From positions 352,001-416,000 of the forward strand of contig CAVSPA010000007.1 in the NCBI GenBank assembly GCA_963729715.1: a stretch of DNA of 64,000 bases, written 5' to 3'. The DNA is from an uncultured delta proteobacterium (GTDB lineage Bacteria > Desulfobacterota > Syntrophia > Syntrophales > UBA2185). The notes under the pieces were generated by a model, which was given only the letters and a program-made list of their open reading frames with translations, ran no database searches and was not told the DNA's origin. Below, one piece after another: positions 2,271 through 46,978 of this stretch (the stretch's first letter is position 1; every line of letters begins with the position of its first letter). A program made the position numbers and the translations under genes.

Positions 2271-2376
2271 GGAGATAGCCAGGCTTACCCGCAGCACACG
2301 TCGGAAATTGCTACCGTTGCTTCCTTCCGGATCTGGCGGGGTTTACAACCCTTCGTTGCACGGGACCCGGCTATCA
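2271..2376 (-). ncRNA. ffs: Signal recognition particle RNA (4.5S, small type)
   Basis: Minus strand has the domain IV motif ...AGATCCGGAAGGAAGCAACGG..., closing stem GATAGCC/GGCTATC, and the classic location upstream of dnaX. Confidence 0.93.
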
Positions 2377-2483
2377 TATTTGGAGGACAGGGAATAGGAA
2401 TAAGAGATGGGTTAACCTGTTTTTGATCTCTGCCGCCTAATCTGTTTCCTAGCCTCTATTCTCTGATCCCTATTCCCCAATAC

Positions 2484-2577
<94 letters not shown>

Positions 2578-2658
2578 ACATTGGGGATCAGGGGTTAGGG
2601 ATAGGGGTTCAAAAAAAATTTGACTCATCCCTATTCCCTGATCTCTATTCCCTAATGC

Positions 2659-2752
2659 TGGCGGAGAGAGGGGGATTCGAACCCCCGTGAGAGCTTTTGG
2701 CCCTCAAATCGATTTCGAGTCGATCCCGTTACGACCACTTCGGTATCTCTCC
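2659..2752 (-). tRNA. tRNA-Ser(CGA)
   Basis: ATCGA-CT-CGA-AA-TCGAT anticodon arm, long variable arm, GGTTCGAATCC, encoded CCA. Confidence 0.97.
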
Positions 2753-12903: not shown

Positions 12904-13845
12904 TCAAAGACTGAACCTGACGGCAAGAAATATAATCGTCGCAAGAATCATAGTGACAAACATCAGGGCATTTGCCCTTACTATATCCTTCTTCCTCAGC
13001 TCTTTGACCGGATCTCCCAAGGTTGGTCTCAGAGATGGTTCCCCAAAGTAATAGTTCAGCCCGCCAAGTTGAACGGCGAGAGCGCCGGCCACAGCAGCCT
13101 CCGTGAGGCCTGAGTTCGGGCTCGGGTGTTTTTTCCCATCCCTCAACAGGATTCTGAGCGAATTCAAAGGACTCATCTGCAGGATGAGGGCGGCAACAGG
13201 AATCATCAAAGCCGTCAGTCTCGCGGGTATATAGTTGGCAACGTCATCGAGCTTTGCCGAGGCCCATCCGAATTTTCTGTAACGTTCGTTTTTGTAGCCG
13301 AAAGTGGAATCAAGCGTATTTACAGCCTTGTAAAGCATCGCGCCTGCAGGTCCGGCAAGGAAGGCAAAAAACAAGGGCGCCGTAACTCCATCCACAGTGT
13401 TCTCGGCAACACTTTCCACTGTTGCCCGAACGATGCCCGCCTCATCGAGGATGTCGGTGTCCCTGCCCACCAGCAGGGCAACCTTCTTCCTTGCCTCCTC
13501 AATGTTCCCCGCTTTCAACCCGCGATAGACATTAATACTATGCAGTGATAGGTCTCTGGCAGCAAACGTCGTATAGAGGAGGACAATGGAAACGATATCG
13601 GCGGCGAGAGGATGAAGCAGACCTGCACCAGCGACGGCCGCATATGTTGCCAAACCCGTAACCACGAGGACAATTAACACCGCCATCGAGCCTGCCGTGC
13701 GCGCCTTTGCAAATATCCGTCTCAGTGGTGTCTCGAGGAAAGAAGCGAAACGTCCTATCAGTTTCACGGGGTGGGGAAGCCAGGGCGGATCGCCGGCGAT
13801 GAAGTCCAGAAGTATGGCGGCAACAATCTGATATTCCAGTCTCAT
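12904..13845 (-). CDS. cbiB: Adenosylcobinamide-phosphate synthase
   Basis: GDP..LPHPV, VGRDT, ESVAEN.VDG, NTLDS..GY, HPSPNSG. Confidence 0.95.
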   Translation of the reverse strand: MRLEYQIVAAILLDFIAGDPPWLPHPVKLIGRFASFLETPLRRIFAKARTAGSMAVLIVLVVTGLATYAAVAGAGLLHPLAADIVSIVLLYTTFAARDLSLHSINVYRGLKAGNIEEARKKVALLVGRDTDILDEAGIVRATVESVAENTVDGVTAPLFFAFLAGPAGAMLYKAVNTLDSTFGYKNERYRKFGWASAKLDDVANYIPARLTALMIPVAALILQMSPLNSLRILLRDGKKHPSPNSGLTEAAVAGALAVQLGGLNYYFGEPSLRPTLGDPVKELRKKDIVRANALMFVTMILATIIFLAVRFSL

Positions 13846-13909
13846 GTAAAAATTTCAGGCCGGGAGATTTGAATTTTGAAAAATATCTCTCAGTCCCCCT
13901 CCCGTTAGC

Positions 13910-14659
13910 TCAATACACGATGCCCATCAAAGCCAAAGCTGCGATGGGCGGAATAATCTCCGTAAGTTCACAACCGGCTCCCAGGGTATCACCCGTATAC
14001 CCGCCAATCGTACGAAAACAGTAAACAGAAAAAAGAGCTGCCATCAAAAGCGCAGAAAATCCTGCTGCGAGTCCCATCCAGTGTCCCGCAAGCCATCCTG
14101 CGGTAAGGAGAAACGCCGATGTCCAAAGGACGTTTAGCCATGACTTTCCACCCCCGAAGGCAGTCGCCAGGCCGCCTTCGCGTCTGACATAGGGAAGAGC
14201 CGTCATCATCAAAACAAAAGAGCACCGCCCCGCCAGAGGCATGAGGACAATGATCCCCGGACGTAAAGGCGGTAAGATGGATATCAGCAAGGACACTTTC
14301 AGCACAATTACAAAAACCACAGCGAGAACGCCCATGACGCCTGTCCGGCTGTCTCTCATGATTTCGAGGACCCGCTCACGCGGACGGGCGCTGAAAAAAC
14401 CATCCGCCGTATCCGCTAGGCCGTCCATGTGTAATCCCCCCGATATCACTGTCATGGCAATCACGGTCATCACGTTTGCCGGGAGTGGCGGGAGAATTAA
14501 GCCTATGACATGATCAAAAGCCGCTATGATAATGCCGATGAGCAAACCAACGACGGGGAAGAACGGCATGCATCTCGCGAGTTCCTTTTCTCCACCTGTG
14601 AAACTCTTTGGAAATGGGATGACTGTCAAGAACTGGATGGCTGCCAGAAGAGGTCTCAT
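13910..14659 (-). CDS. cobS: Adenosylcobinamide-GDP ribazoletransferase (cobalamin synthase)
   Basis: FLT.IP, GGLHMDGLADTADG, IMRDSRTG, GGYTGDTLGA. Confidence 0.95.
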   Translation of the reverse strand: MRPLLAAIQFLTVIPFPKSFTGGEKELARCMPFFPVVGLLIGIIIAAFDHVIGLILPPLPANVMTVIAMTVISGGLHMDGLADTADGFFSARPRERVLEIMRDSRTGVMGVLAVVFVIVLKVSLLISILPPLRPGIIVLMPLAGRCSFVLMMTALPYVRREGGLATAFGGGKSWLNVLWTSAFLLTAGWLAGHWMGLAAGFSALLMAALFSVYCFRTIGGYTGDTLGAGCELTEIIPPIAALALMGIVY

Positions 14660-15720
14660 TTGTCCGCCTTGGATACTGCCGCTTCCTCAAAAGTGGCCAC
14701 TTCCGTAAGAATCCGGACGGCGGCCTCTACAAGATTCATGGATAAGGCCGCGCCTGTTCCTTCGCCGAGCCTCATATCGAGATCCAGAAGTGGTTTTTTC
14801 CCCAGGCAGTCGAGTGCTATCTGATGCCCCCTTTCCATGCTGCGATGGGAGGCGATCATGTAATCCCGGGAAGCGGGAGCCAACCGCGCGGCTATGAGTG
14901 CGCCGGCAGTGGAGATGAATCCATCCACGAGCACTGGCTTTCTCATGTAGGCAGCGCCCAAAATTAAGCCGGCGATACCGCCGATCTCAAATCCCCCGAC
15001 CTTTGCGAGGACATCAAGGACGTCGTTTGGGTCGGGCCTGTTCATCTCCAGGGCCTGTTCGATCATTGTATTCTTATGCACAAGCTGTACATCATCAATG
15101 CCTGTACCGCGGCCCACAATCTCGGCAAGCGGTGAACCGCTGAATACGGCAATGACAGCGGCGCTCGGTGAAGTGTTGCCGATCCCCATATCGCCTGTAC
15201 CGAAGATATCTGTCGACGGCCCCAGTTCCAGGGCCACCTCAATTCCTCCTTCCAGGGAGCGAACGGCCTCATTCCGGGACATGGCCGGTCCGGTGGCCAT
15301 ATTCCTTGTTCCCGCCCCCGTCCGCTTGGAAATGATCTTCCCCGCTTTCACGAGCTCACCCAAGTCACCTGCCACACCCATATCGACGATCACCACCTGT
15401 GCACCGACAAGCTTTGCCAGGGCATTGATGCCTGCGCCGCCCTGTACAAAGTTATGGACCATCTGAACGGTTACTTCCTGCGGATATTTACTGACGCCCG
15501 CTGCAGCAATTCCATGATCACCTGCCATGGTAACTATAGTCTTGCGGCCCACAGGCGGCTTCAGGGAACCCGTCATACCCGCTAATTCTTCGGCCAGGTC
15601 CATCAATCGTCCCAACGCCCAGTACGGCATAGTGAGCTGTTCAAGCCTTTGCCTTGCTTGTGCACGGGCATCCGTGTCCTGGGGGATTATTTTATTAATC
15701 GTCGATTCCAATAAGTTCAT
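14656..15720 (-). CDS. cobT: Nicotinate-nucleotide:dimethylbenzimidazole phosphoribosyltransferase
   Basis: LGRL, AGDHG, MGIGNT, GRGTG, GGFEI, DGFI, MRLGEGTGA. Confidence 0.95.
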   Translation of the reverse strand: MNLLESTINKIIPQDTDARAQARQRLEQLTMPYWALGRLMDLAEELAGMTGSLKPPVGRKTIVTMAGDHGIAAAGVSKYPQEVTVQMVHNFVQGGAGINALAKLVGAQVVIVDMGVAGDLGELVKAGKIISKRTGAGTRNMATGPAMSRNEAVRSLEGGIEVALELGPSTDIFGTGDMGIGNTSPSAAVIAVFSGSPLAEIVGRGTGIDDVQLVHKNTMIEQALEMNRPDPNDVLDVLAKVGGFEIGGIAGLILGAAYMRKPVLVDGFISTAGALIAARLAPASRDYMIASHRSMERGHQIALDCLGKKPLLDLDMRLGEGTGAALSMNLVEAAVRILTEVATFEEAAVSKADK

Positions 15721-16268
15721 AATATTTTCTCTCCTTTAATATAGAGGGGAATGCCGCTTATCATGAAGATGAACACATCCGCGTGATCCGCCATGATCTG
15801 ATTGCACCGCCCTGCCAGGTCCCGGAACAGCCGGGAGACGGGATTCTCTGGCACTATGCCCATCCCTACTTCATTGGTTACAAGAATAACCGTGCCGGGA
15901 AGGTCGTTACAGACTCCCACGATATCCTCACACCTTGCACTAATCACCTCTTCATCAAGACATCTCTTTTCCTGCTCTGCTTCATACATGAGATTGTTGA
16001 TCCACAAGGTGAGGCAGTCAACGAGCGTCACATGGCTCCCCCTTGATCTGCGGAGGGCCCCCGCGAGATCCGTCAACTCTTCGAGAGTCTGCCAGGACGC
16101 TTGTTTGCGGTCTTCCTTGTGCTTCCGTATGCGGTCTTCCATCTCCTTATCGATGACCGGACAAGTTGCAATATACGTTCGGGCGCCGGAGATCGACTCC
16201 GCAATACGTTGGCCGTAGGCGCTCTTGCCGCTCCTGCTCCCCCCTGTAATGAAAATGATCTTAGCCAT
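15717..16268 (-). CDS. cobU: Bifunctional adenosylcobinamide kinase / cobinamide-phosphate guanylyltransferase
   Basis: ITGGSRSGKS, YIAT, DCLTLW, TNEVGMGIVP, FRD.AG; start refined to MAKIIF. Confidence 0.95.
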   Translation of the reverse strand: MAKIIFITGGSRSGKSAYGQRIAESISGARTYIATCPVIDKEMEDRIRKHKEDRKQASWQTLEELTDLAGALRRSRGSHVTLVDCLTLWINNLMYEAEQEKRCLDEEVISARCEDIVGVCNDLPGTVILVTNEVGMGIVPENPVSRLFRDLAGRCNQIMADHADVFIFMISGIPLYIKGEKIL

Positions 16269-16887
16269 CCGATGCGACCTCTTGCTCCACCCGTCCTGTT
16301 TCATTCAGCCCCGCGAGGACACCTGACCGGTTAAACAGTTCGATAGTTGTGAGGGAGGCATGCTTCACCTTAAAGAGTATATAGTGCCAGGGCTGAAGCC
16401 CCAGAAAATGGCAGATGAGGAGACGGATGACGCCTCCATGCGTACATACGAGAATGGTGTCGGCCGCGTTTGTCACCAGACGCTCGGCAACGCCCACGAT
16501 TCTTTCCTGAAAATCTCCGATTTTGTCCCCGCCCGGAAAAGAAAACTCGGCGTTGAACTCAGCCCATTTATTGATCTCCCCGGGAAAGGTCTTCTGGATT
16601 TCCCCGAAGGCCATGCCTTCCCATCGACCGAAATCTACTTCTCTCAGATCGGGATCGACGGCAAAGTCCATGTCAGCACTTTCCATAACAGCAGCTGCCG
16701 TTTCTCTGCAGCGCGCCATGGGACTCGAGATACACCGGCTGGGCATTTCTTTGTCGAGCAGCGCCCGGACGGCCCTGACCTGCCGATGCCCCAGGGCGCT
16801 CATGGATACATCCGTTCTCCCTATATACCGGTCTTGATACTGCTTGCCTATATCTCCGTGTCTCACGAGCAATAATTTTCGTGCCAT
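16261..16887 (-). CDS. cobC: Histidine phosphatase, probable alpha-ribazole phosphatase
   Basis: VRHG, SSP..R..ETA, LREVDFGRWEG, THGG; first gene of the cob operon; start refined to MARKLL. Confidence 0.85.
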   Translation of the reverse strand: MARKLLLVRHGDIGKQYQDRYIGRTDVSMSALGHRQVRAVRALLDKEMPSRCISSPMARCRETAAAVMESADMDFAVDPDLREVDFGRWEGMAFGEIQKTFPGEINKWAEFNAEFSFPGGDKIGDFQERIVGVAERLVTNAADTILVCTHGGVIRLLICHFLGLQPWHYILFKVKHASLTTIELFNRSGVLAGLNETGRVEQEVASDG

Positions 16888-16931
16888 AAAAATAATAAAA
16901 AATCCACGAACCATTTTATTGATCCGTGGAT
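16888..16931 (-). terminator. Intrinsic terminator of the riboswitch 1 expression platform
   Basis: Minus strand ATCCACG...CGTGGAT followed by TTTTTATTATTTT. Confidence 0.65.
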
Positions 16932-16999
16932 GCCGTTTTCCATCTACGGTGAATTCAGCTTTGCCTGTACCGCGCACAGGCCAAAACTACGTTTGCTCT

Positions 17000-17156
17000 G
17001 CAGGCAGGTCTTCTGACTTCCGGCTCTTTCTACTCGCCGCGCCTTCCCATCCTTGGAGGAAAGTGGCCCATACGGTTTTCGTCCCCGGTTACAGCGGCGG
17101 GTCCGTGGCGGATTTTCACCGCCTTCCCTAACGCCCTTGCGGGTTACCTATGTTGG
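17000..17156 (-). promoter_or_regulatory. Cobalamin riboswitch 1
   Basis: Minus strand AGGGAAGGCGGTGAAAATCCGCCACGGACCCGCCGCTGTAA...GCCACT...GGGAAGGC...AGTCAGAAGACCTGCC (B12 box), upstream of cobC. Confidence 0.95.
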
Positions 17157-17271
17157 ACTTATGCGTAACACACGCATGCGAAGTTTGTCAAGGGAATCAA
17201 TCCCACGAGTCTTACTCAATGCAAAGGGCAAAGGTCCGGCTGCTTTTTTATTTCGGACGGCTTCCCTGTCC

Positions 17272-38782: not shown

Positions 38783-38811
38783 TTGACTTGACGCCCCCGC
38801 GCATATATAAG
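38783..38811 (+). promoter_or_regulatory. sigma70-type promoter for riboswitch 2 and the peptide-rSAM operon
   Basis: TTGACT-N17-TATAAG directly before the aptamer. Confidence 0.55.
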
Positions 38812-38814
38812 CAC

Positions 38815-38976
38815 ACATCGGTTTTAGCATACCGGAACACGGTGCAAATCCGTGGCGGACCCGCCGCTGTAATCGGCGAGGCTCTTCACAATAGCTGGTC
38901 ACTGCCGGGGTTCACCCCGTTGGGAAGACGGTGAAGAGCCCTTGACCCGAAAGCCAGAAGACCTGCGCAAACCGAG
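38815..38976 (+). promoter_or_regulatory. Cobalamin riboswitch 2
   Basis: CCGGAACACGGTGCAAATCCGTGGCGGACCCGCCGCTGTAA...GTCACTG...GGGAAGAC...AAGCCAGAAGACCTGC. Confidence 0.93.
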
Positions 38977-38995
38977 ATAACCGGAATCCGATGGT

Positions 38996-39040
38996 AAAGG
39001 GTTCCGACTGACGCCAGTCGTCCGTCGGAACCCTTTTTTT
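38996..39040 (+). terminator. Intrinsic terminator of riboswitch 2
   Basis: AAAGGGTTCCGAC...GTCGGAACCCTTTTTTT. Confidence 0.85.
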
Positions 39041-39073
39041 ATTGTCCAAAAATTACAGGAAAGGAGAATGTAC

Positions 39074-39181
39074 ATGAAGAAAAAGAAAGCAAAAAAAGAT
39101 GTTATCGCGTATCGGAAGGGCTGCAAAGCCAAAGGAACCGGGCTTTCCCACTACATTCTGATGGACAGGAAAGCGAAATAA
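39074..39181 (+). CDS. cbpA: 35-aa RiPP-type precursor peptide (CbpA-like), missing from ORF track
   Basis: AAGGAG RBS; MKKKKAKKDVIAYRKGCKAKGTGLSHYILMDRKAK; its TAA overlaps the ATG of the radical SAM gene (TAATG). Confidence 0.85.
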   Translation: MKKKKAKKDVIAYRKGCKAKGTGLSHYILMDRKAK

Positions 39182-40602
39182 TGGCGGTCACGAAAAAGAA
39201 GGTAATCAAGGACGCGGCGGCCCCCTCGCGGGGCCGCTTCGTCAACACGGGTAACGGTCCCACATTTCAACCAATCGATATCGGCCACCGGCAATATTTG
39301 GCCGTCATCGAACCGGATACGGCTTTCTGGTCCCTCATGAAGCGCGAAAAAATCGCCGACGTCTTTTCCGCAGGCGAGCTCACAAGAGCCTTTGCCGGAA
39401 AATCCCGGCAGTTCGCGCGGGAGATAGATAAACTGCGGTTCGGGCTCACGCCCTCTGCGGTCTACTTCAATCCTACCGAACGGTGCAACATGAACTGCAC
39501 CTACTGTTACATACCTGAGAAGATGAGAAAGAAGGGCAAACACATGCCCGAAAAGAAACTTCTTGAGGCGCTGGAGCTCCTGAAACGGCACTTCGGCAAG
39601 ACCCTGTCTAAGGGTTCCATGCCTCAGATCATCTTCCACGGGGCGGAGCCCCTGCTCAATCGTGATGCTGTCTTCGCCGGCATCGAGAAATACGGGAAGG
39701 ATTTTCTCTTCGGCATCCAGACCAATGCAACACTCCTCGACGATGAGGCCGCCAAGTTCCTTACTAGCCGCAAGGTGAGCATCGGACTTTCGCTCGACGC
39801 TCCCACCGCACAGATTGCCGATCGCACCCGGAAGAACTGGGAAGGCCAGGGAACTTTCAAGCACGTGCTTGCAGCCATGAAGCGGCTTGGTGGCTACGAA
39901 GGCTGGAGCGTTATCTGCACCGTCACCGCCGCAAACAAGCGGCATCTTACCAGGCTGGTGGATTTTTTTCACGAGCGAGAGGTGCCCACATGCCTGATGA
40001 ACATCCTTCGTTGCACACTTCCGCCCTCACGCAGCCTGAAGCCGGACGATGCAGCAGCGGCCAGGCATTTCCTCGCCGCTTTAGACCGCACCTACGAACT
40101 CTATAGAAAGACCGGCCGCAGACTGACGGTGGGAAATTTTGCCAATATCATCCTTGCCATCATCGCGCCCGCGGCGCGCAGGCTCATGTGCGACATCTCT
40201 CCCTGCGGCGGCGGCAGATGTTTTTTTGCATTGGCACCCAACGGCGATATGTTTCCGTGTAGTGAATTCATCGGTCTCGACCGCTTCCGCGCGGGAAACC
40301 TTTTTGAAGATGATATTTCGCGGCTGATGGACTCCGAACAGTTCCGTCTGGTGACAGGCCGCAAGGTTGAGGACATCGAGCCATGCCGGCGCTGCGCCAT
40401 CCGGCACTTCTGCGGATCTCCATGCCCGGCCGAGGCCTACGAGATGAACGGCGGCATGGACAAGACTGGCGCCTTCTGTGAGTTCTACGAAGAGCAGGTG
40501 CGCTACGCTTTCCGCGTTATCGCCGATGGAAAGGTGGACGCCTACCTCTGGGACAACTGGGACAAGGGGATGAAAGAAACCTTCAATATAGGAAGCTCTT
40601 GA
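39181..40602 (+). CDS. cbpB: Peptide-modifying radical SAM/SPASM enzyme (CbpB-like)
   Basis: CNMNCTYC, FHGAEPLL, QTNA, SLD; SPASM cysteines CDISPCGGGRC...GDMFPC...CRRCAIRHFCGSPC...FC. Confidence 0.85.
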   Translation: MAVTKKKVIKDAAAPSRGRFVNTGNGPTFQPIDIGHRQYLAVIEPDTAFWSLMKREKIADVFSAGELTRAFAGKSRQFAREIDKLRFGLTPSAVYFNPTERCNMNCTYCYIPEKMRKKGKHMPEKKLLEALELLKRHFGKTLSKGSMPQIIFHGAEPLLNRDAVFAGIEKYGKDFLFGIQTNATLLDDEAAKFLTSRKVSIGLSLDAPTAQIADRTRKNWEGQGTFKHVLAAMKRLGGYEGWSVICTVTAANKRHLTRLVDFFHEREVPTCLMNILRCTLPPSRSLKPDDAAAARHFLAALDRTYELYRKTGRRLTVGNFANIILAIIAPAARRLMCDISPCGGGRCFFALAPNGDMFPCSEFIGLDRFRAGNLFEDDISRLMDSEQFRLVTGRKVEDIEPCRRCAIRHFCGSPCPAEAYEMNGGMDKTGAFCEFYEEQVRYAFRVIADGKVDAYLWDNWDKGMKETFNIGSS

Positions 40603-42722: not shown

Positions 42723-42787
42723 TGCCTGTCAATTATATCTTGACAAAGAAACCCTCCTTTGTTACTCATCACTTGAAATGACAAAAG

Positions 42788-42940
42788 AATACGGATGGAT
42801 GTGTGGAAGAGGGGTTAAATGCCCCCGCTGCCCCGCAGCCGTGAAGGGAACGAAAGCCTCAAAAAGCCACTGTCATGAAAAGTGCATGCCGGGAAGGCGG
42901 GTGAGTAGGCAGCCCGAAGCCGGAAAACCAATCCATCGCG
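42788..42940 (+). promoter_or_regulatory. Cobalamin riboswitch 3
   Basis: GGAAGAGGGGTTAAATGCCCCCGCTGCCCCGCAGCCGTGA...GCCACTG...GGGAAGGC...GAAGCCGGAAAACC; P1 GATGGAT/ATCCATC; upstream of cobD-cbiP. Confidence 0.85.
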
Positions 42941-43155
42941 GTTCCTCGAGGGGGGATTTTTACGGCTACATTACTTTTCTCAATTATTCCATTCTTACTT
43001 TACCAGCCCGCCATCCCGGTTTGCAAAGATGCCTGCGGTTCGTTCAAATCTGCCAGTTCGCGTGACCATGCCGGAATATCCCCGTCAGCATCCCGTTGCC
43101 ATAACGCTCTTGCCGGAGTGTGTGGCGATAAAGGAGCCTGATACAGGAAAAAGAA

Positions 43156-45729
43156 ATGACACCAAACAAACACGGTGGAAACCTGATAAAATTGGCATCA
43201 GCGGCGGGGCTTTCCCCGGACGATATCCTGGACTTTTCCGCCAATATAAATCCTCTCGGTCCACCGGAATGGGTCAGGCCCCTCATGAGCCGGACGATTT
43301 CCTCCCTCACCCATTATCCTGACCCGGACTGTGGAGCGCTTATTGGTGCCATCTCCGCCCGTTATGGGGTCCGGGAAGATGAGATTGTTGCCGGGAACGG
43401 TTCTACAGAACTCATCTACCTCATACCACGGGAACTTCACGTGAGACGCGCCGTCATTCCCATACCCGCCTATGCAGACTATGCGCGAGCCTCGGAACTC
43501 GCCGGGCTGACGCTGGAAAAGACTATTTTGAAAGAAGAAGACGCCTTCCGGCCCAATCTGGCAGCCATTGAAGCGCGGCTCCGTGAAGGCGACATGATGT
43601 TTATCGGCCAGCCGAGTAATCCAACAGGGTTGGTCTGCAATGCGGATGCCCTGAGAGGCATGGCCATGAGGAATGCGTCCGTCACCTTCGTCATAGACGA
43701 GGCGTTCGCCGCATTTGTGGAAGGCATGGACAGCCTCACGCGCAGGCGTCCCTCCAATGTCATCGTGCTTCTCTCTTTCACCAAGTTCTTTGCAATTCCA
43801 GGCCTGAGACTGGGTTGCGCTATTGCCGACCCTGCCGTCATCTCGCAAATACGGGCGATGATGCCGCCCTGGTCGGTCAATACCCTCGCCCAGGTCGTCG
43901 GGGAAAAGGCCATGGCGGATGAAGAATATGCGAGGAAGACGAAGGCATACTGCCATGCGGAGCGGAAGACGCTTATGGAGCAATTGCAGTCCATCCCCGG
44001 GCTTTATGTGTATCCAGGAGAGGCGAATTATCTCATGGTGCGGATTGACCGAAAAGGGCTGAGCGCGTCTGCGCTCGCAGAGAAGCTCCTGCCCGTGGGA
44101 ATCGCCATCAGGATCTGCGAGAATTTCGATGGACTGGATGCAAGGTTCTTTCGCGTTGCTGTGAGGACTGCTGAAGAAAATGAAATTCTCTTACACAAGC
44201 TCCGCCACGCTCTCGGCGTTACTCACGTCTTGAGTAGAAAGAAAACGAAACCTGCTCTCATGATCCAGGGGACAAGCTCCAACGCGGGAAAGAGTGTCAT
44301 GGCTGCGGCCCTCTGCCGCATCATGCTCCAGGACGGTTACAGCGTCGCGCCCTTCAAGGCGCAGAACATGTCTTTGAACTCCTGCGTCACGCGGGACGGC
44401 GGCGAGATGGGCCGTGCCCAGGTCGTCCAGTCCCAGGCCTCCCGGATCGACCCGGATGTAAGGATGAATCCCATCCTGCTCAAACCCGGCAGCGATACGG
44501 GCGCCCAGGTCATCGTAATGGGAAAGCCTGTAGGGAACATGGATGTGGGACAGTATATCCGCTACAAGCCCGAAGCGTTCCGAAGGGCGTTGGAGGCATA
44601 CGATTCCCTCGCCTCCGAGCACGACGTCATCATCCTGGAGGGAGCGGGCAGCCCCGCGGAAGTTAATCTCAAGCACCACGACATAGTCAACATGGCCATG
44701 GCCCGTTACGCCCGTTCGCCGGTCATTCTGGTCGGTGACATCGACAGAGGCGGAGTCTTTGCTTCATTCGTAGGGACGATGGAGGTCCTTGCCGAATGGG
44801 AAAGGGCGCTGGTCGCGGGGTTTATAATCAACCGTTTTCGGGGGGATGAATCGCTGCTTGATGATGCCATAAATTATGTGGAGCGCCATACAGGGCGTCC
44901 CACTTTCGGCATCGTCCCCTATCTCAAAGGCCTGGGACTCCCGGAAGAGGACTCCGTCACCTTCAAGAACGGCCCGAATGAAGGAACCCGCCCTCCCGGA
45001 GATGCGGTGGAGATCGCACTTATCGACCTTCCCCATATATCAAACTTCACGGATTTTGATTCGCTCCGCTTGGAACCAGACGTGCACCTGCGCGTTGTCC
45101 GGTCATCCCGCGATATCGGGCACCCTGACGCCGTCATCCTGCCAGGGAGCAAGAACGTCATCGGCGACCTGGAATATCTCACGAAGGACGGCCTCGCGGA
45201 AAGGATCGCAGACCTAGCCCATTATGGAAAAACAGAGATTGTCGGCATCTGCGGCGGGTTTCAGCTCCTCGGAGCGGAGATCGCCGACCCGCACGGTATC
45301 GAGTCCGGAGGAAGGACCATCAAAGGACTGGGACTGCTGCCGGTCACAACGACGCTGGCCCCGGAGAAGACCCTCGAATGCGTCTCGGCGCGTCACGCCG
45401 ATTCGGGCATTGCCTTGAAGGGATATGAGATACACCATGGATTGACAAGCGGCATGAACATGCCTGCCGCCGTTGTGCGCGAAGACGGCGCCGTAGTCGG
45501 CGTAAGATCGGAAGACGGACTCCTGTGGGGAACATACCTCCACGGGATATTCGATGCCGATGAATTTCGCCGGTGGTTTGTCGACAGGTTGAGGACCCGC
45601 CGCGGCCTGGCCCCTGTGGGAAGGGTCCTTGCCGCTTATGACCTGGAGCCAGCCTTCGACCGCCTGGCCGATATCGTCCGACGGTGCCTGAATATGGATG
45701 CAATCTATCGGTTGATGGGATTGAGGTGA
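43156..45729 (+). CDS. cobQ: Fused L-threonine-O-3-phosphate decarboxylase (CobD) and cobyric acid synthase (CbiP/CobQ)
   Basis: N half: [31 protein letters not shown] half: [52 protein letters not shown]. Confidence 0.93.
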
Positions 45730-45742
45730 GAGGGTTGTCAGT

Positions 45743-46270
45743 GTGAAAGATAAGAAGCGGATACTGCTCTTTACGGGGGACGGCAAAGGAAAGACGACAG
45801 CCGCCCTAGGCATAGCCCTCCGCGCGTGCGGGCACGGCATGAAGACCATGATAATCCAATTCGTTAAGGCGGATCCCACAACGGGAGAGCTTGCGGCATG
45901 CAGGCATCTGCCCGGTTGCGAGATCGTGCAGACCGGCAGGGGGTTTGTCCCGGAGCGGACCGACCCGGCATTCAGGGAACACCTGATGGCGGCTGCGGAA
46001 GGCCTGAAACGGGCCGCAGAGGCCCTTTCGTCAGGCGGCTACGATCTTATTATTCTCGATGAAATATGCACCGCCATAGGGAAGGGACTTCTTGACGAGG
46101 GACAGGTCATCGAAGCCGTCCAGGGAGGAGCACCAAGGATGTGCGTCGTCATGACGGGCCAGAACGCCACGGCGGGGCTGATATCCCTCTCCGACACGGT
46201 AACAGACATGCGCGTGGTCAAACACGGTTTCCAAGAAGGAATAGAAGGGCAAAAGGGAGTGGAATACTGA
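45743..46270 (+). CDS. cobO: Cob(I)yrinate a,c-diamide adenosyltransferase, paralog 2
   Basis: FTGDGKGKTTAALG, QFVK, ILDEI, KH.F..G...QKGVEY. Confidence 0.9.
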   Translation: MKDKKRILLFTGDGKGKTTAALGIALRACGHGMKTMIIQFVKADPTTGELAACRHLPGCEIVQTGRGFVPERTDPAFREHLMAAAEGLKRAAEALSSGGYDLIILDEICTAIGKGLLDEGQVIEAVQGGAPRMCVVMTGQNATAGLISLSDTVTDMRVVKHGFQEGIEGQKGVEY

Positions 46271-46272
46271 AT

Positions 46273-46311
46273 ATGCACTTGCCCCGGATTGTCATAGCGG
46301 GCACGCAAAGC
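46273..46311 (+). pseudogene. cbiA: 5' stub of cobyrinate a,c-diamide synthase
   Basis: MHLPRIVIAGTQS matches the CbiA/CobB N-terminus and stops just before the expected G.GKTT P-loop; directly follows cobO. Confidence 0.7.
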
Positions 46312-46978
46312 GTCTCGATGGCGACAGAGATTTCGCTGGAACTGGATGCGCATCCCGACATCAGCCGGCGAGCGGGAAGGCTCGATGAGAAGGGATGGCC
46401 CGCCTGATCAGCGAAGGCGGCATCGACGCGATCGTCGATGCGACACACCCTACGCAGTGCTTGTCCGAAAGACGGCGAGTCGCGTATCCAGGCGCCTTAA
46501 TATTCCCTACTTTGCCCTCCGCCGCCCGACGGGCATCCACGGTAGGGAGAGAATTACACTGGCGGCAAGGATCGCCTGCACTGCGGGTCGGACGGTATTT
46601 CTCACCACAGGTGTCACGAACCTCAAACCATACGTAGATGAAGCACGGAAAATGGGAAGCATGCTGATCGTCCGTGTCCTTCCCGCAAAGTCGTCCCTCA
46701 ATGCCTGCCGCGCTCTTGGCATCAATGAAGAATTTATCATCGCGAAGAGGGGGCCATTCTCTGTCGACGAAAACAGATCAGCCATGAAGAGTTTCGGCGT
46801 AGGCGTGCTCGTCACCAAGGATAGCGGCCCTGCCGGGGGAACACCAGAAAAGCTGGAGGCGGCGCGTCTTGAAGGCTGCCCCGTTGTTGTTGTCACGCGA
46901 CCGCAGGAGCCCGCTCATGCTTCCTTCGAGAAACATGCCGACCTGATATCCGCTGTCAGGGCTCGTGTTCCTATATAA
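46312..46978 (+). pseudogene. cbiJ: Precorrin-6x/cobalt-precorrin-6A reductase, 5'-truncated and frameshifted
   Basis: Motifs split over three frames: VSMATE...GRLDEKG / MARLISEGGIDAIVDATHP / YA...RRP...VFLTTG..NL...RVLP...GPFS...N...LVTKDSG..GG..EK..AA...V.RP. Confidence 0.85.

Follow-up and report, generated by a model that had tools for sequence, protein, structure and literature searches.

Which organisms can use a given cobamide depends on its lower ligand, and BzaF is the anaerobic 5-hydroxybenzimidazole synthase (accessible portions of PMC7617358 and PMC6461909). According to the latter portion, 42% of predicted cobamide producers carry no known benzimidazole or phenolic ligand genes. 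On the regulatory side, the closest described system is the cobT switch of Alkalihalobacillus halodurans, presented in the available sections of PMC10653944 as the first activating corrinoid riboswitch; its P13 helix overlaps the terminator, which gives activation, cobinamide is its best effector, and an L5–L13 kissing loop, demonstrated by mutation, stabilises P13. Here, we analyzed a stretch of 64,000 nucleotides (the window) from an uncultured delta proteobacterium of the Syntrophales (contig CAVSPA010000007.1, positions 352,001 to 416,000), which carries a riboswitch-controlled pair consisting of a 35-residue peptide gene, cbpA, and a gene for a radical S-adenosylmethionine (SAM)/SPASM enzyme, cbpB. 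We give an even chance to the reading that this pair, cbpAB, supplies a cobamide lower-ligand base, under a switch predicted to be ON upon accumulation of an incomplete corrinoid such as cobinamide.

The leader of cbpAB matched the Rfam model RF00174 at 38834–38962 with 77.0 bits (gathering score 31.5), in agreement with the cobalamin riboswitch proposed in the initial annotation of this DNA. The match covered model positions 47–167 and left 1–46 unmatched, indicating that P2 is absent, a pattern shared by 40 of 49 metagenomic cbpA riboswitches. Likewise, the predicted transcription start lies only ~17 nt from the conserved aptamer core, and this short 5' end is also conserved in the riboswitch alignment. 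The terminator folds with −26.3 kcal/mol (z −6.6; none of 200 shuffles as good), and the 3' arm of P13 serves as its 5' arm, with an overlap offset of 0 nt. Across 31 aligned riboswitches P13 was paired in 88.9% of cells, compared to 79.3% after shuffling (none of 500 shuffles as good), with 20 compensatory cells vs 4.5, and slid partners dropped to 25–64% paired; the terminator was paired in 96.0% of cells with 30 compensatory cells, where kinship among the riboswitches may inflate these covariation counts. In 64 distinct platforms, a count leaving out three loci without an L13 match, 451 of 512 P13 cells were paired vs 388 ± 5, and the overlap itself was found in 44 of 46 metagenomic platforms. 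A switch would be expected to show just this, two covarying helices with one strand in common, and in the ligand-free fold the terminator was favoured by about 14 kcal/mol. The loop motifs L5 [AU]CCCG and L13 UGG[UC] occurred together in 51 of the 60 platforms with L5 called (ACCCG and UGGU in the window); their columns barely vary, and the single correlated change (L5 G to A with L13 U to A, three of four cases) is not Watson–Crick.

The A. halodurans loops, GCCCG and UGGC, match these motifs, and there, too, P13 excludes the terminator (available sections of PMC10653944). Based on the overlap layout and this precedent, the cbpAB switch is very probably activated by a corrinoid: sequence and covariation place P13 and the terminator in competition for a single strand, and corrinoid binding would form the L5–L13 kissing loop, hold P13 and let transcription pass. 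The pair would thus be made when a corrinoid is bound and not when B12 is absent. That cobinamide is the preferred effector appears reasonably probable. The statement of the initial annotation that the peptide is made only when B12 is low is probably wrong, as mutually exclusive P13 and terminator helices are the activating layout in the accessible text of PMC10653944.

Other genes behind such switches were collected in a phylum sample of 301 genomes, 28 of which carry cbpB. A loose riboswitch pattern matched in 138 of the 301 genomes, with many matches in the reversed control as well; 70 loci were examined (30 returned by the search and 40 picked by eye from 150 of 234 matches), and the 27 retained for their L5 motif and B12 box, together with seven already collected, gave 34 riboswitches that were classed by script. 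The overlap layout preceded bzaF-clade genes in 14 of 14 cases with a called terminator, which come from about six families and are not 14 independent events, and cobT in 4 of 4; four more bzaF-clade cases had no called terminator. It was also found once each before a dehydrogenase/TrpD-like/cobT cassette, a UbiD gene and cbpAB. All five ring, cobalt or uptake operons with a called terminator, whose first genes are cbiX, cbiC, cbiM or uptake genes, showed the separate layout, as did one unknown gene and the window's own cobC-cobU-cobT-cobS-cbiB operon (borderline, 4 nt), in which the terminator starts just after P13; the two further riboswitches had no terminator called. Two of the bzaF switches lack P2 and hardly differ from the cbpAB platform, and altogether the overlap was present in over 100 loci in this analysis. 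Since the overlap layout precedes bzaF and cobT and not the ring or cobalt operons, it appears to mark lower-ligand genes, with cbpAB among them.

The dehydrogenase cassette (L198:500–2686, G030:C100) consists of a P2-less overlap-type riboswitch before a Zn-dehydrogenase, a TrpD-like phosphoribosyltransferase and cobT. Its TrpD-like gene was found in 10 of the 301 genomes, three of them with two ThiC copies and one with cbpB, and a three-way exclusion including this cassette was therefore rejected. The UbiD-family decarboxylase gene lies behind a P2-less, probably overlap-type cobalamin riboswitch (L223:518–1783, minus strand, G127:C42) in a genome that also has an overlap-type switch on cobT (L222); this gene is a candidate for supplying a phenolic or some other ligand. 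Furthermore, two cobalamin riboswitches that resemble each other, both with an atypical 5' end and lacking an obvious terminator, lie at 42780–42950 (plus strand) of the window and at L084 (G000:C3:81361–81530), the latter and a second one (L082) being located with btu-like uptake genes.

We then compared the gene content of the cbpB genomes with that of the whole sample. cobT was present in 27 of the 28 cbpB genomes compared to 215 of 301 overall, and cbiD in 25 of 28. A single ThiC-family gene was found in all 27 cbpB genomes besides this one, and two copies in 52 other genomes. The present genome has two equal-scoring ThiC copies on two contigs; thiC and its neighbours are near-identical there (G000:C12:4440–5696 and G000:C15:3010–4266), which fits the 6.5% contamination estimate. 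In a quick tree of 61 ThiC-family proteins, 16 of 16 sampled second copies fell in one clade with a support of 100, most of them lying beside cob genes or behind cobalamin riboswitches, and no ThiC copy from the 28 cbpB genomes fell in this BzaF-like clade (0/28). A plausible second copy was found in 49 of 188 cobT-positive, cbpB-negative genomes, after dropping G191 and G187 as likely duplicate or split copies, giving a Fisher p of 0.0009, or 0.007 with G299 treated as an exception, both inflated by kinship as the genomes are not independent. Within family f37 one genome carries cbpB and another a BzaF-like gene. Among 50 cbpB genomes of diverse phyla, many of them incomplete assemblies, a BzaF query gave a match in 47 with a best identity of 50%, under the 64–76% of clade members, so that none had a bzaF-like gene; the two sets make 78 genome look-ups and may have a few genomes in common. 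As the TIGR04386 (BzaB) cut-off is unable to split BzaF from ThiC (0 of 301 and 0 of 55 over cut-off), the tree and the gene context were used instead.

The genome of the window itself shows no match to cbiD, cbiC, cbiL or cbiE among the matches listed. At 46273–46978 (plus strand) the first cbiA codons run into the middle of cbiJ, which on this sequence is a scar of deleted corrin-ring genes; the ring loss would be recent, since the close relative G302 (L002) keeps cbiD. No BluB was found over cut-off, the late-pathway genes cobD, cbiB, cbiP, cobT, cobU, cobS and cobC were all kept (NCBIfam), and btu-like uptake genes as well as nine B12-binding domains over cut-off are present. By its gene content this genome is a precursor salvager that has retained cbpAB although it has no known ligand synthase. 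No CbiD was found in seven of 12 hand-picked cbpB genomes, among them the single-chromosome G330, which likewise retains cobT and cbpAB.

Analysis of the neighbourhood revealed a cobamide gene within 6 kb in 36 of 80 cbpAB loci, which, together with the co-occurrence with cobT, bears out the cobamide link made in the initial annotation. The neighbour classes were cobT/S/U/C (20), cbiB/cobD/cbiP (19), ring genes (10), btu (7) and cobalt uptake (5), where the late-pathway labels derive from NCBIfam and the remaining ones are our presumed assignments, recognised from sequence. cobT follows directly 3' of cbpB in 7 of the 80 genome loci (Smithella or Syntrophales on the cluster map), L051 and two f54 genomes (G067, G098). 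Inside operons cbpAB usually stands after cbiA-cbiC and often before cbiM or cbiX, and bzaF stood after cbiA and before cbiM or cbiC in 4 of 6 inspected loci. The genes flanking cbpAB in cob operons of Omnitrophota are those of a diphthamide-synthase-like ATPase and an asparagine-synthase-like protein (L062:3171–3821, L064:7372–8037, L064:4810–5748, L068:4650–5702).

Together, the regulatory slot shared with bzaF and cobT, the exclusion of the BzaF-like clade, the tracking of the late pathway combined with persistence without cbiD, and a position resembling that of bzaF, with cobT right after cbpB and cbiA-cbiC before, support a role in ligand supply, and we slightly favour the view that cbpAB acts at the lower-ligand step.

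Both proteins belong to a catalogued family. The CbpB open reading frame (ORF) scored 694.1 bits against TIGR04163 (cut-off 375, model positions 1–428 of 428) and the CbpA ORF 57.5 bits against TIGR04164 (cut-off 35, positions 1–25 of 25), so that the assignment to CbpA/CbpB in the initial annotation stands at curated NCBIfam cut-offs; the next-best families of CbpB stayed below theirs (PapB 139.7 vs 340, SCIFF 103 vs 425). The peptide, also previously claimed to go with the enzyme, lies upstream of it in 77 of 80 genome loci, the three misses being contig ends with at most 120 nt upstream, and the enzyme is directly 3' of the peptide in 70 of 71 metagenome loci with room, which were found via the peptide. 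In the window the cbpA TAA and the cbpB ATG overlap by one base, and this stop–start overlap is also seen in close relatives. cbpA is conserved at the amino-acid level across phyla, even at least 100 bases from cbpB and where the riboswitch is absent. Named CbpB relatives at 85–94% identity are mostly Syntrophales, cultured carriers of cbpAB include Rhodoblastus acidophilus, Sedimenticola and Fundidesulfovibrio putealis, the family ranges over Planctomycetota, Verrucomicrobiota, Omnitrophota, Lentisphaerae, Dehalococcoidales and Proteobacteria, and matches at E 1e-60 comprise at least 2187 protein clusters, some possibly below the family cut-off. A sister SPASM group (P0261, P0268, P0271, P0274, P0277, P0281) shows 27–32% identity, keeps an N-terminal Trp and reached 265–338 bits on TIGR04163 in four scanned members, under the cut-off. 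The literature searched contained no paper under the names CbpA/CbpB and no tested reaction, as the initial annotation had supposed, and the available parts of PMC3543383 and PMC8620254 hold nothing on the pair. Going by these matches, the locus is a typical representative of a family that is catalogued but unstudied.

All 77 upstream peptides contain the Cys, Gly, Leu and His, with the Ser once replaced by Ala and the Tyr once by Phe (L075), and the 130 cores among the top 120 profile hits all read G-x-G-L-S-H-Y, an invariance partly built in by choosing the peptides by motif or profile. The spacer from Cys to GLSH measured 5, 6 or 7 residues (78, 4 and 9 of 91), suggesting that the recognition segment is separate from the core. 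Tandem two-cassette precursors made up 14 of the top 120 peptide hits (P0122–P0135, two of them from Sedimenticola by name), as expected of a consumed substrate. CbpB has the features of a radical SAM/SPASM maturase: C102/C106/C109 (CxxxCxxC) and eight SPASM cysteines, invariant in 58 sequences, and an N-terminus that the structure model (predicted local distance difference test 85.7; residues 30–87 forming three strands plus helices) and the match to CteB suggest to be RRE-like. CteB (PDB 5WHY, 5WGG) was the closest fold by Foldseek (E 3e-21), followed by anSME (PDB 4K36–4K39; E 3e-19), with the profile matches (E 5e-34 and 2e-30) giving the same order at 18–22% identity. A complex prediction of CbpB (26–465) with CbpA, SAM and three 4Fe-4S clusters reached a score of 0.14 and a mark of 0.32.

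The eight SPASM cysteines suggest two fully ligated clusters in CbpB, as in anSME, which keeps all eight and modifies a protein. CteB lacks the first of the eight in the alignment, a position that we take to be the site open for thioether chemistry. Full cluster ligation counts against such chemistry. A thioether from the single CbpA Cys is hence disfavoured by the eight cysteines, the variable Cys spacer and the CteB comparison, and the fixed Cys-to-core cross-link of the initial annotation loses ground with it. Assignment to the ranthipeptide/sactipeptide maturases (CteB, PapB, SCIFF) was likewise rejected, based on the single Cys, the variable spacer and the PapB and SCIFF scores below cut-off.

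For the peptide we envisage that the RRE-like domain of CbpB grips the I-x-x-R-x-x-C segment and that the enzyme oxidises or cross-links the G-L-S-H-Y core, on structural grounds with the invariant His26 as the likeliest site. A small N-heterocycle would then be freed by housekeeping proteases or by radical cleavage, and the single CobT would phosphoribosylate it for CobS. That the base is cut from the CbpA peptide itself is possible, though doubtful. Of the products suggested in the initial annotation, a peptide-derived cofactor fits best, in a version where the peptide contributes part of the cofactor. In its full form the proposal is tentative: a third, peptide-based lower-ligand route, in which CobT builds an imidazole-containing base from the His-Tyr core into a B12 analogue, possibly not yet isolated, and a cobinamide-activated, widespread switch class marks bzaF, cobT, cbpAB and two further cassettes. 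A phenolic ligand (p-cresol from Tyr) is disfavoured, since all 27 cobT-positive cbpB genomes had one CobT match and the Tyr is Phe in L075; phenolic ligands need tandem ArsAB (available portion of PMC6461909).

Several observations weigh against lower-ligand supply by cbpAB. The window's own cobT operon has the separate layout and looks OFF-type. The second-ThiC clade is taken as BzaF from clade and context and not from a curated model, and both cbpAB and a second ThiC are absent from most cobT-positive genomes, so that the exclusion may partly reflect lineage. Rhodoblastus acidophilus carries both cbpAB and BluB, and the exclusion thus does not extend to the oxygen-dependent synthase of dimethylbenzimidazole; as BluB is aerobic, an anaerobic second route would fit there. 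In G299 the sole ThiC-family gene lies inside the same cob operon as cbpAB (L088:9499–10785, minus strand, G299:C192), between cbiN and cbiQ, where sister genomes keep it after thiD; it groups with the plain ThiC of these sisters and is possibly an independent recruitment of ThiC. The CobT proteins of cbpB genomes do not group as a single clade, with 13 changes on the tree of which no fewer than 10 are forced, and single-clade co-evolution of CobT with cbpAB, looked for on this tree, was not found. The corrin ring is still made by 25 of the 28 cbpB genomes, the 1.2 Mb assembly G333 shows neither cbiD nor cobT, and in some operons cbpAB adjoins cbiM or cbiX. Neither the 30 downstream ORFs scanned nor the neighbour clusters of cbpAB showed a recurring protease, exporter or tailoring gene, and the missing protease and tailoring genes again tell against a peptide source. 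To our knowledge no route leads from a His-Tyr peptide to a CobT substrate, and we know of no description of a peptide route to a cobamide lower base.

These points leave room for other explanations. It is unlikely that modified CbpA stays intact and binds cobinamide or a base-off corrinoid through its His, and perhaps its Cys, as a chaperone or buffer for nucleotide-loop assembly. Such a binder agrees with the His and Cys present in all upstream peptides, with the absence of a recurring protease, and with the ON layout and tandem cassettes, which fit stoichiometric binding, but it explains the exclusion of BzaF less directly, and a Cys–His spacing varying by two residues would be poorly tolerated by a fixed chelate. 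The dominance of late-pathway genes among the neighbours and the resemblance of the SPASM cysteines to those of anSME, a modifier of a protein, would also suit another late step (linker, remodelling, or activation of CobT, CobS or CbiB) with the peptide as co-substrate or redox shuttle. We regard this as quite unlikely, given that the genome already has cobD, cbiB, cbiP, cobU, cobS and cobC and that the overlap layout is seen before lower-ligand genes and not before other late genes.

If B12 instead repressed the operon, a cross-linked peptide could act as a cobalt or corrinoid chelator made under B12 scarcity. This idea, raised in the initial annotation, is improbable for cobalt in particular, as this genome lacks the ring synthesis that would need it; more generally, the pair persists without ring synthesis, the covarying P13 shares its strand with the terminator in nearly all metagenomic platforms, no exporter or receptor recurs, and the BzaF exclusion would be left unexplained. 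The chelator draws support from cbiD in most cbpB genomes, from the places beside cbiM or cbiX in some biosynthesis operons, and from the fact that most tested corrinoid riboswitches repress (accessible text of PMC10653944). Very improbable, finally, is a purely regulatory leader or coupling peptide with CbpB acting on a small molecule, for instance by making the base directly. The stop–start overlap would be compatible with it, and a small-molecule base synthase fits the regulation and the exclusion equally well, but the peptide is conserved as amino acids across phyla, also at a distance from cbpB or without the riboswitch, tandem cassettes exist, and CbpB, with its RRE-like domain, has the peptide maturase CteB as its nearest match.

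The promoter, riboswitch, terminator, ribosome-binding site, 35-codon ORF and radical SAM ORF claimed for this locus were all located, and their coordinates are compiled in the table below. The promoter hexamers are 17 nt apart, the pattern TTGAC-N18-TATAA occurs once in the window on both strands, and transcription of cbpAB is predicted to start near 38817; a generic promoter and terminator scan of the window had neither the cbpAB promoter nor its terminator among its calls. Upstream of cbpAB lies what we take, from the translations, to be an ABC operon for branched-chain amino acids, and the downstream neighbour is a convergent ORF without an NCBIfam match, consistent with the claim that no protease, exporter or receptor is adjacent. 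Elsewhere in the window, 2274–2752 (minus strand) holds a small signal recognition particle RNA and two tRNA genes.

Features of the cbpAB locus and cobamide genes elsewhere in the window (positions counted from the first letter of the window)
Feature	Position	Strand	Remarks
Sigma-70-like promoter	38783–38811	+	−35 at 38783–38788, −10 at 38806–38811; consensus match only
Corrinoid riboswitch aptamer, P2-less variant	38817–38978	+	RF00174; L5 loop ACCCG at about 38859–38863
P13 hairpin	38982–39006	+	Arms 38982–38989 and 38999–39006, loop L13 38990–38998; predicted antiterminator via L5–L13 kissing loop
Intrinsic terminator	38999–39040	+	Hairpin 38999–39033, U-tract 39034–39040; 5' arm is the P13 3' arm
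Shine–Dalgarno AAGGAG	39061–39066	+	7 nt before cbpA ATG; from sequence
cbpA, 35-aa precursor peptide	39074–39181	+	TIGR04164; recognition-like I-x-x-R-x-x-C, core G-L-S-H-Y
cbpB, 473-aa radical SAM/SPASM enzyme	39181–40602	+	TIGR04163; RRE-like N-terminus; 3 + 8 conserved cysteines
cobC-cobU-cobT-cobS-cbiB operon	12904–17166	−	NCBIfam; cobalamin riboswitch 16986–17166 (Rfam), separate OFF-like layout
Cobalamin riboswitch, cobD-cbiP fusion, cob(I)yrinic adenosyltransferase, cbiA 5' stub joined to cbiJ remnant	42780–46978	+	

The association of the overlap layout with bzaF and cobT, the exclusion of BzaF and the retention of cbpAB after ring loss are new here, whereas the ON regulation and the ligand role are proposals. 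Placement at the lower ligand turns an orphan annotation across many anaerobic phyla into a testable function, and the overlap layout can be used to find other lower-ligand genes independent of the role of cbpAB. If true, the proposal would join peptide natural-product chemistry to vitamin B12 biosynthesis as a new kind of step in this pathway, and would cover some of the 42% of producers lacking known ligand genes (accessible portion of PMC6461909).

Compared with the known systems, the window pair shows the same order and coupling as the CbpA/CbpB family (TIGR04164 cobo_pep, TIGR04163 rSAM_cobopep), with no family-level difference. Gene clusters of PqqA/PqqE and MftA/MftC carry dedicated proteases and tailoring enzymes. 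At cbpAB, in contrast, no protease or tailoring gene recurs, and the product would be part of a corrinoid, unlike free redox cofactors of the PQQ or mycofactocin type. The proposed likeness lies in a short ribosomal peptide and a SPASM enzyme giving a cofactor-type product from an aromatic core (PqqA/PqqE and MftA/MftC in the available part of PMC10114670). The A. halodurans switch controls cobT in a Firmicute, and the cbpAB switch a peptide and radical SAM pair (available sections of PMC10653944). CbpB is a SPASM enzyme and not a ThiC or BluB protein, and is no homologue of the lower-ligand synthases BzaF, BzaAB and BluB, so that any likeness would be one of function only. BzaF is ThiC-like and acts on aminoimidazole ribotide, with no peptide involved (accessible portions of PMC7617358 and PMC6461909); it resembles cbpAB in the stand-alone riboswitch layout, the place after cbiA and the dependence on cobT, and the two were never found together in the genome look-ups, as would be expected if cbpAB is a non-homologous stand-in for BzaF.

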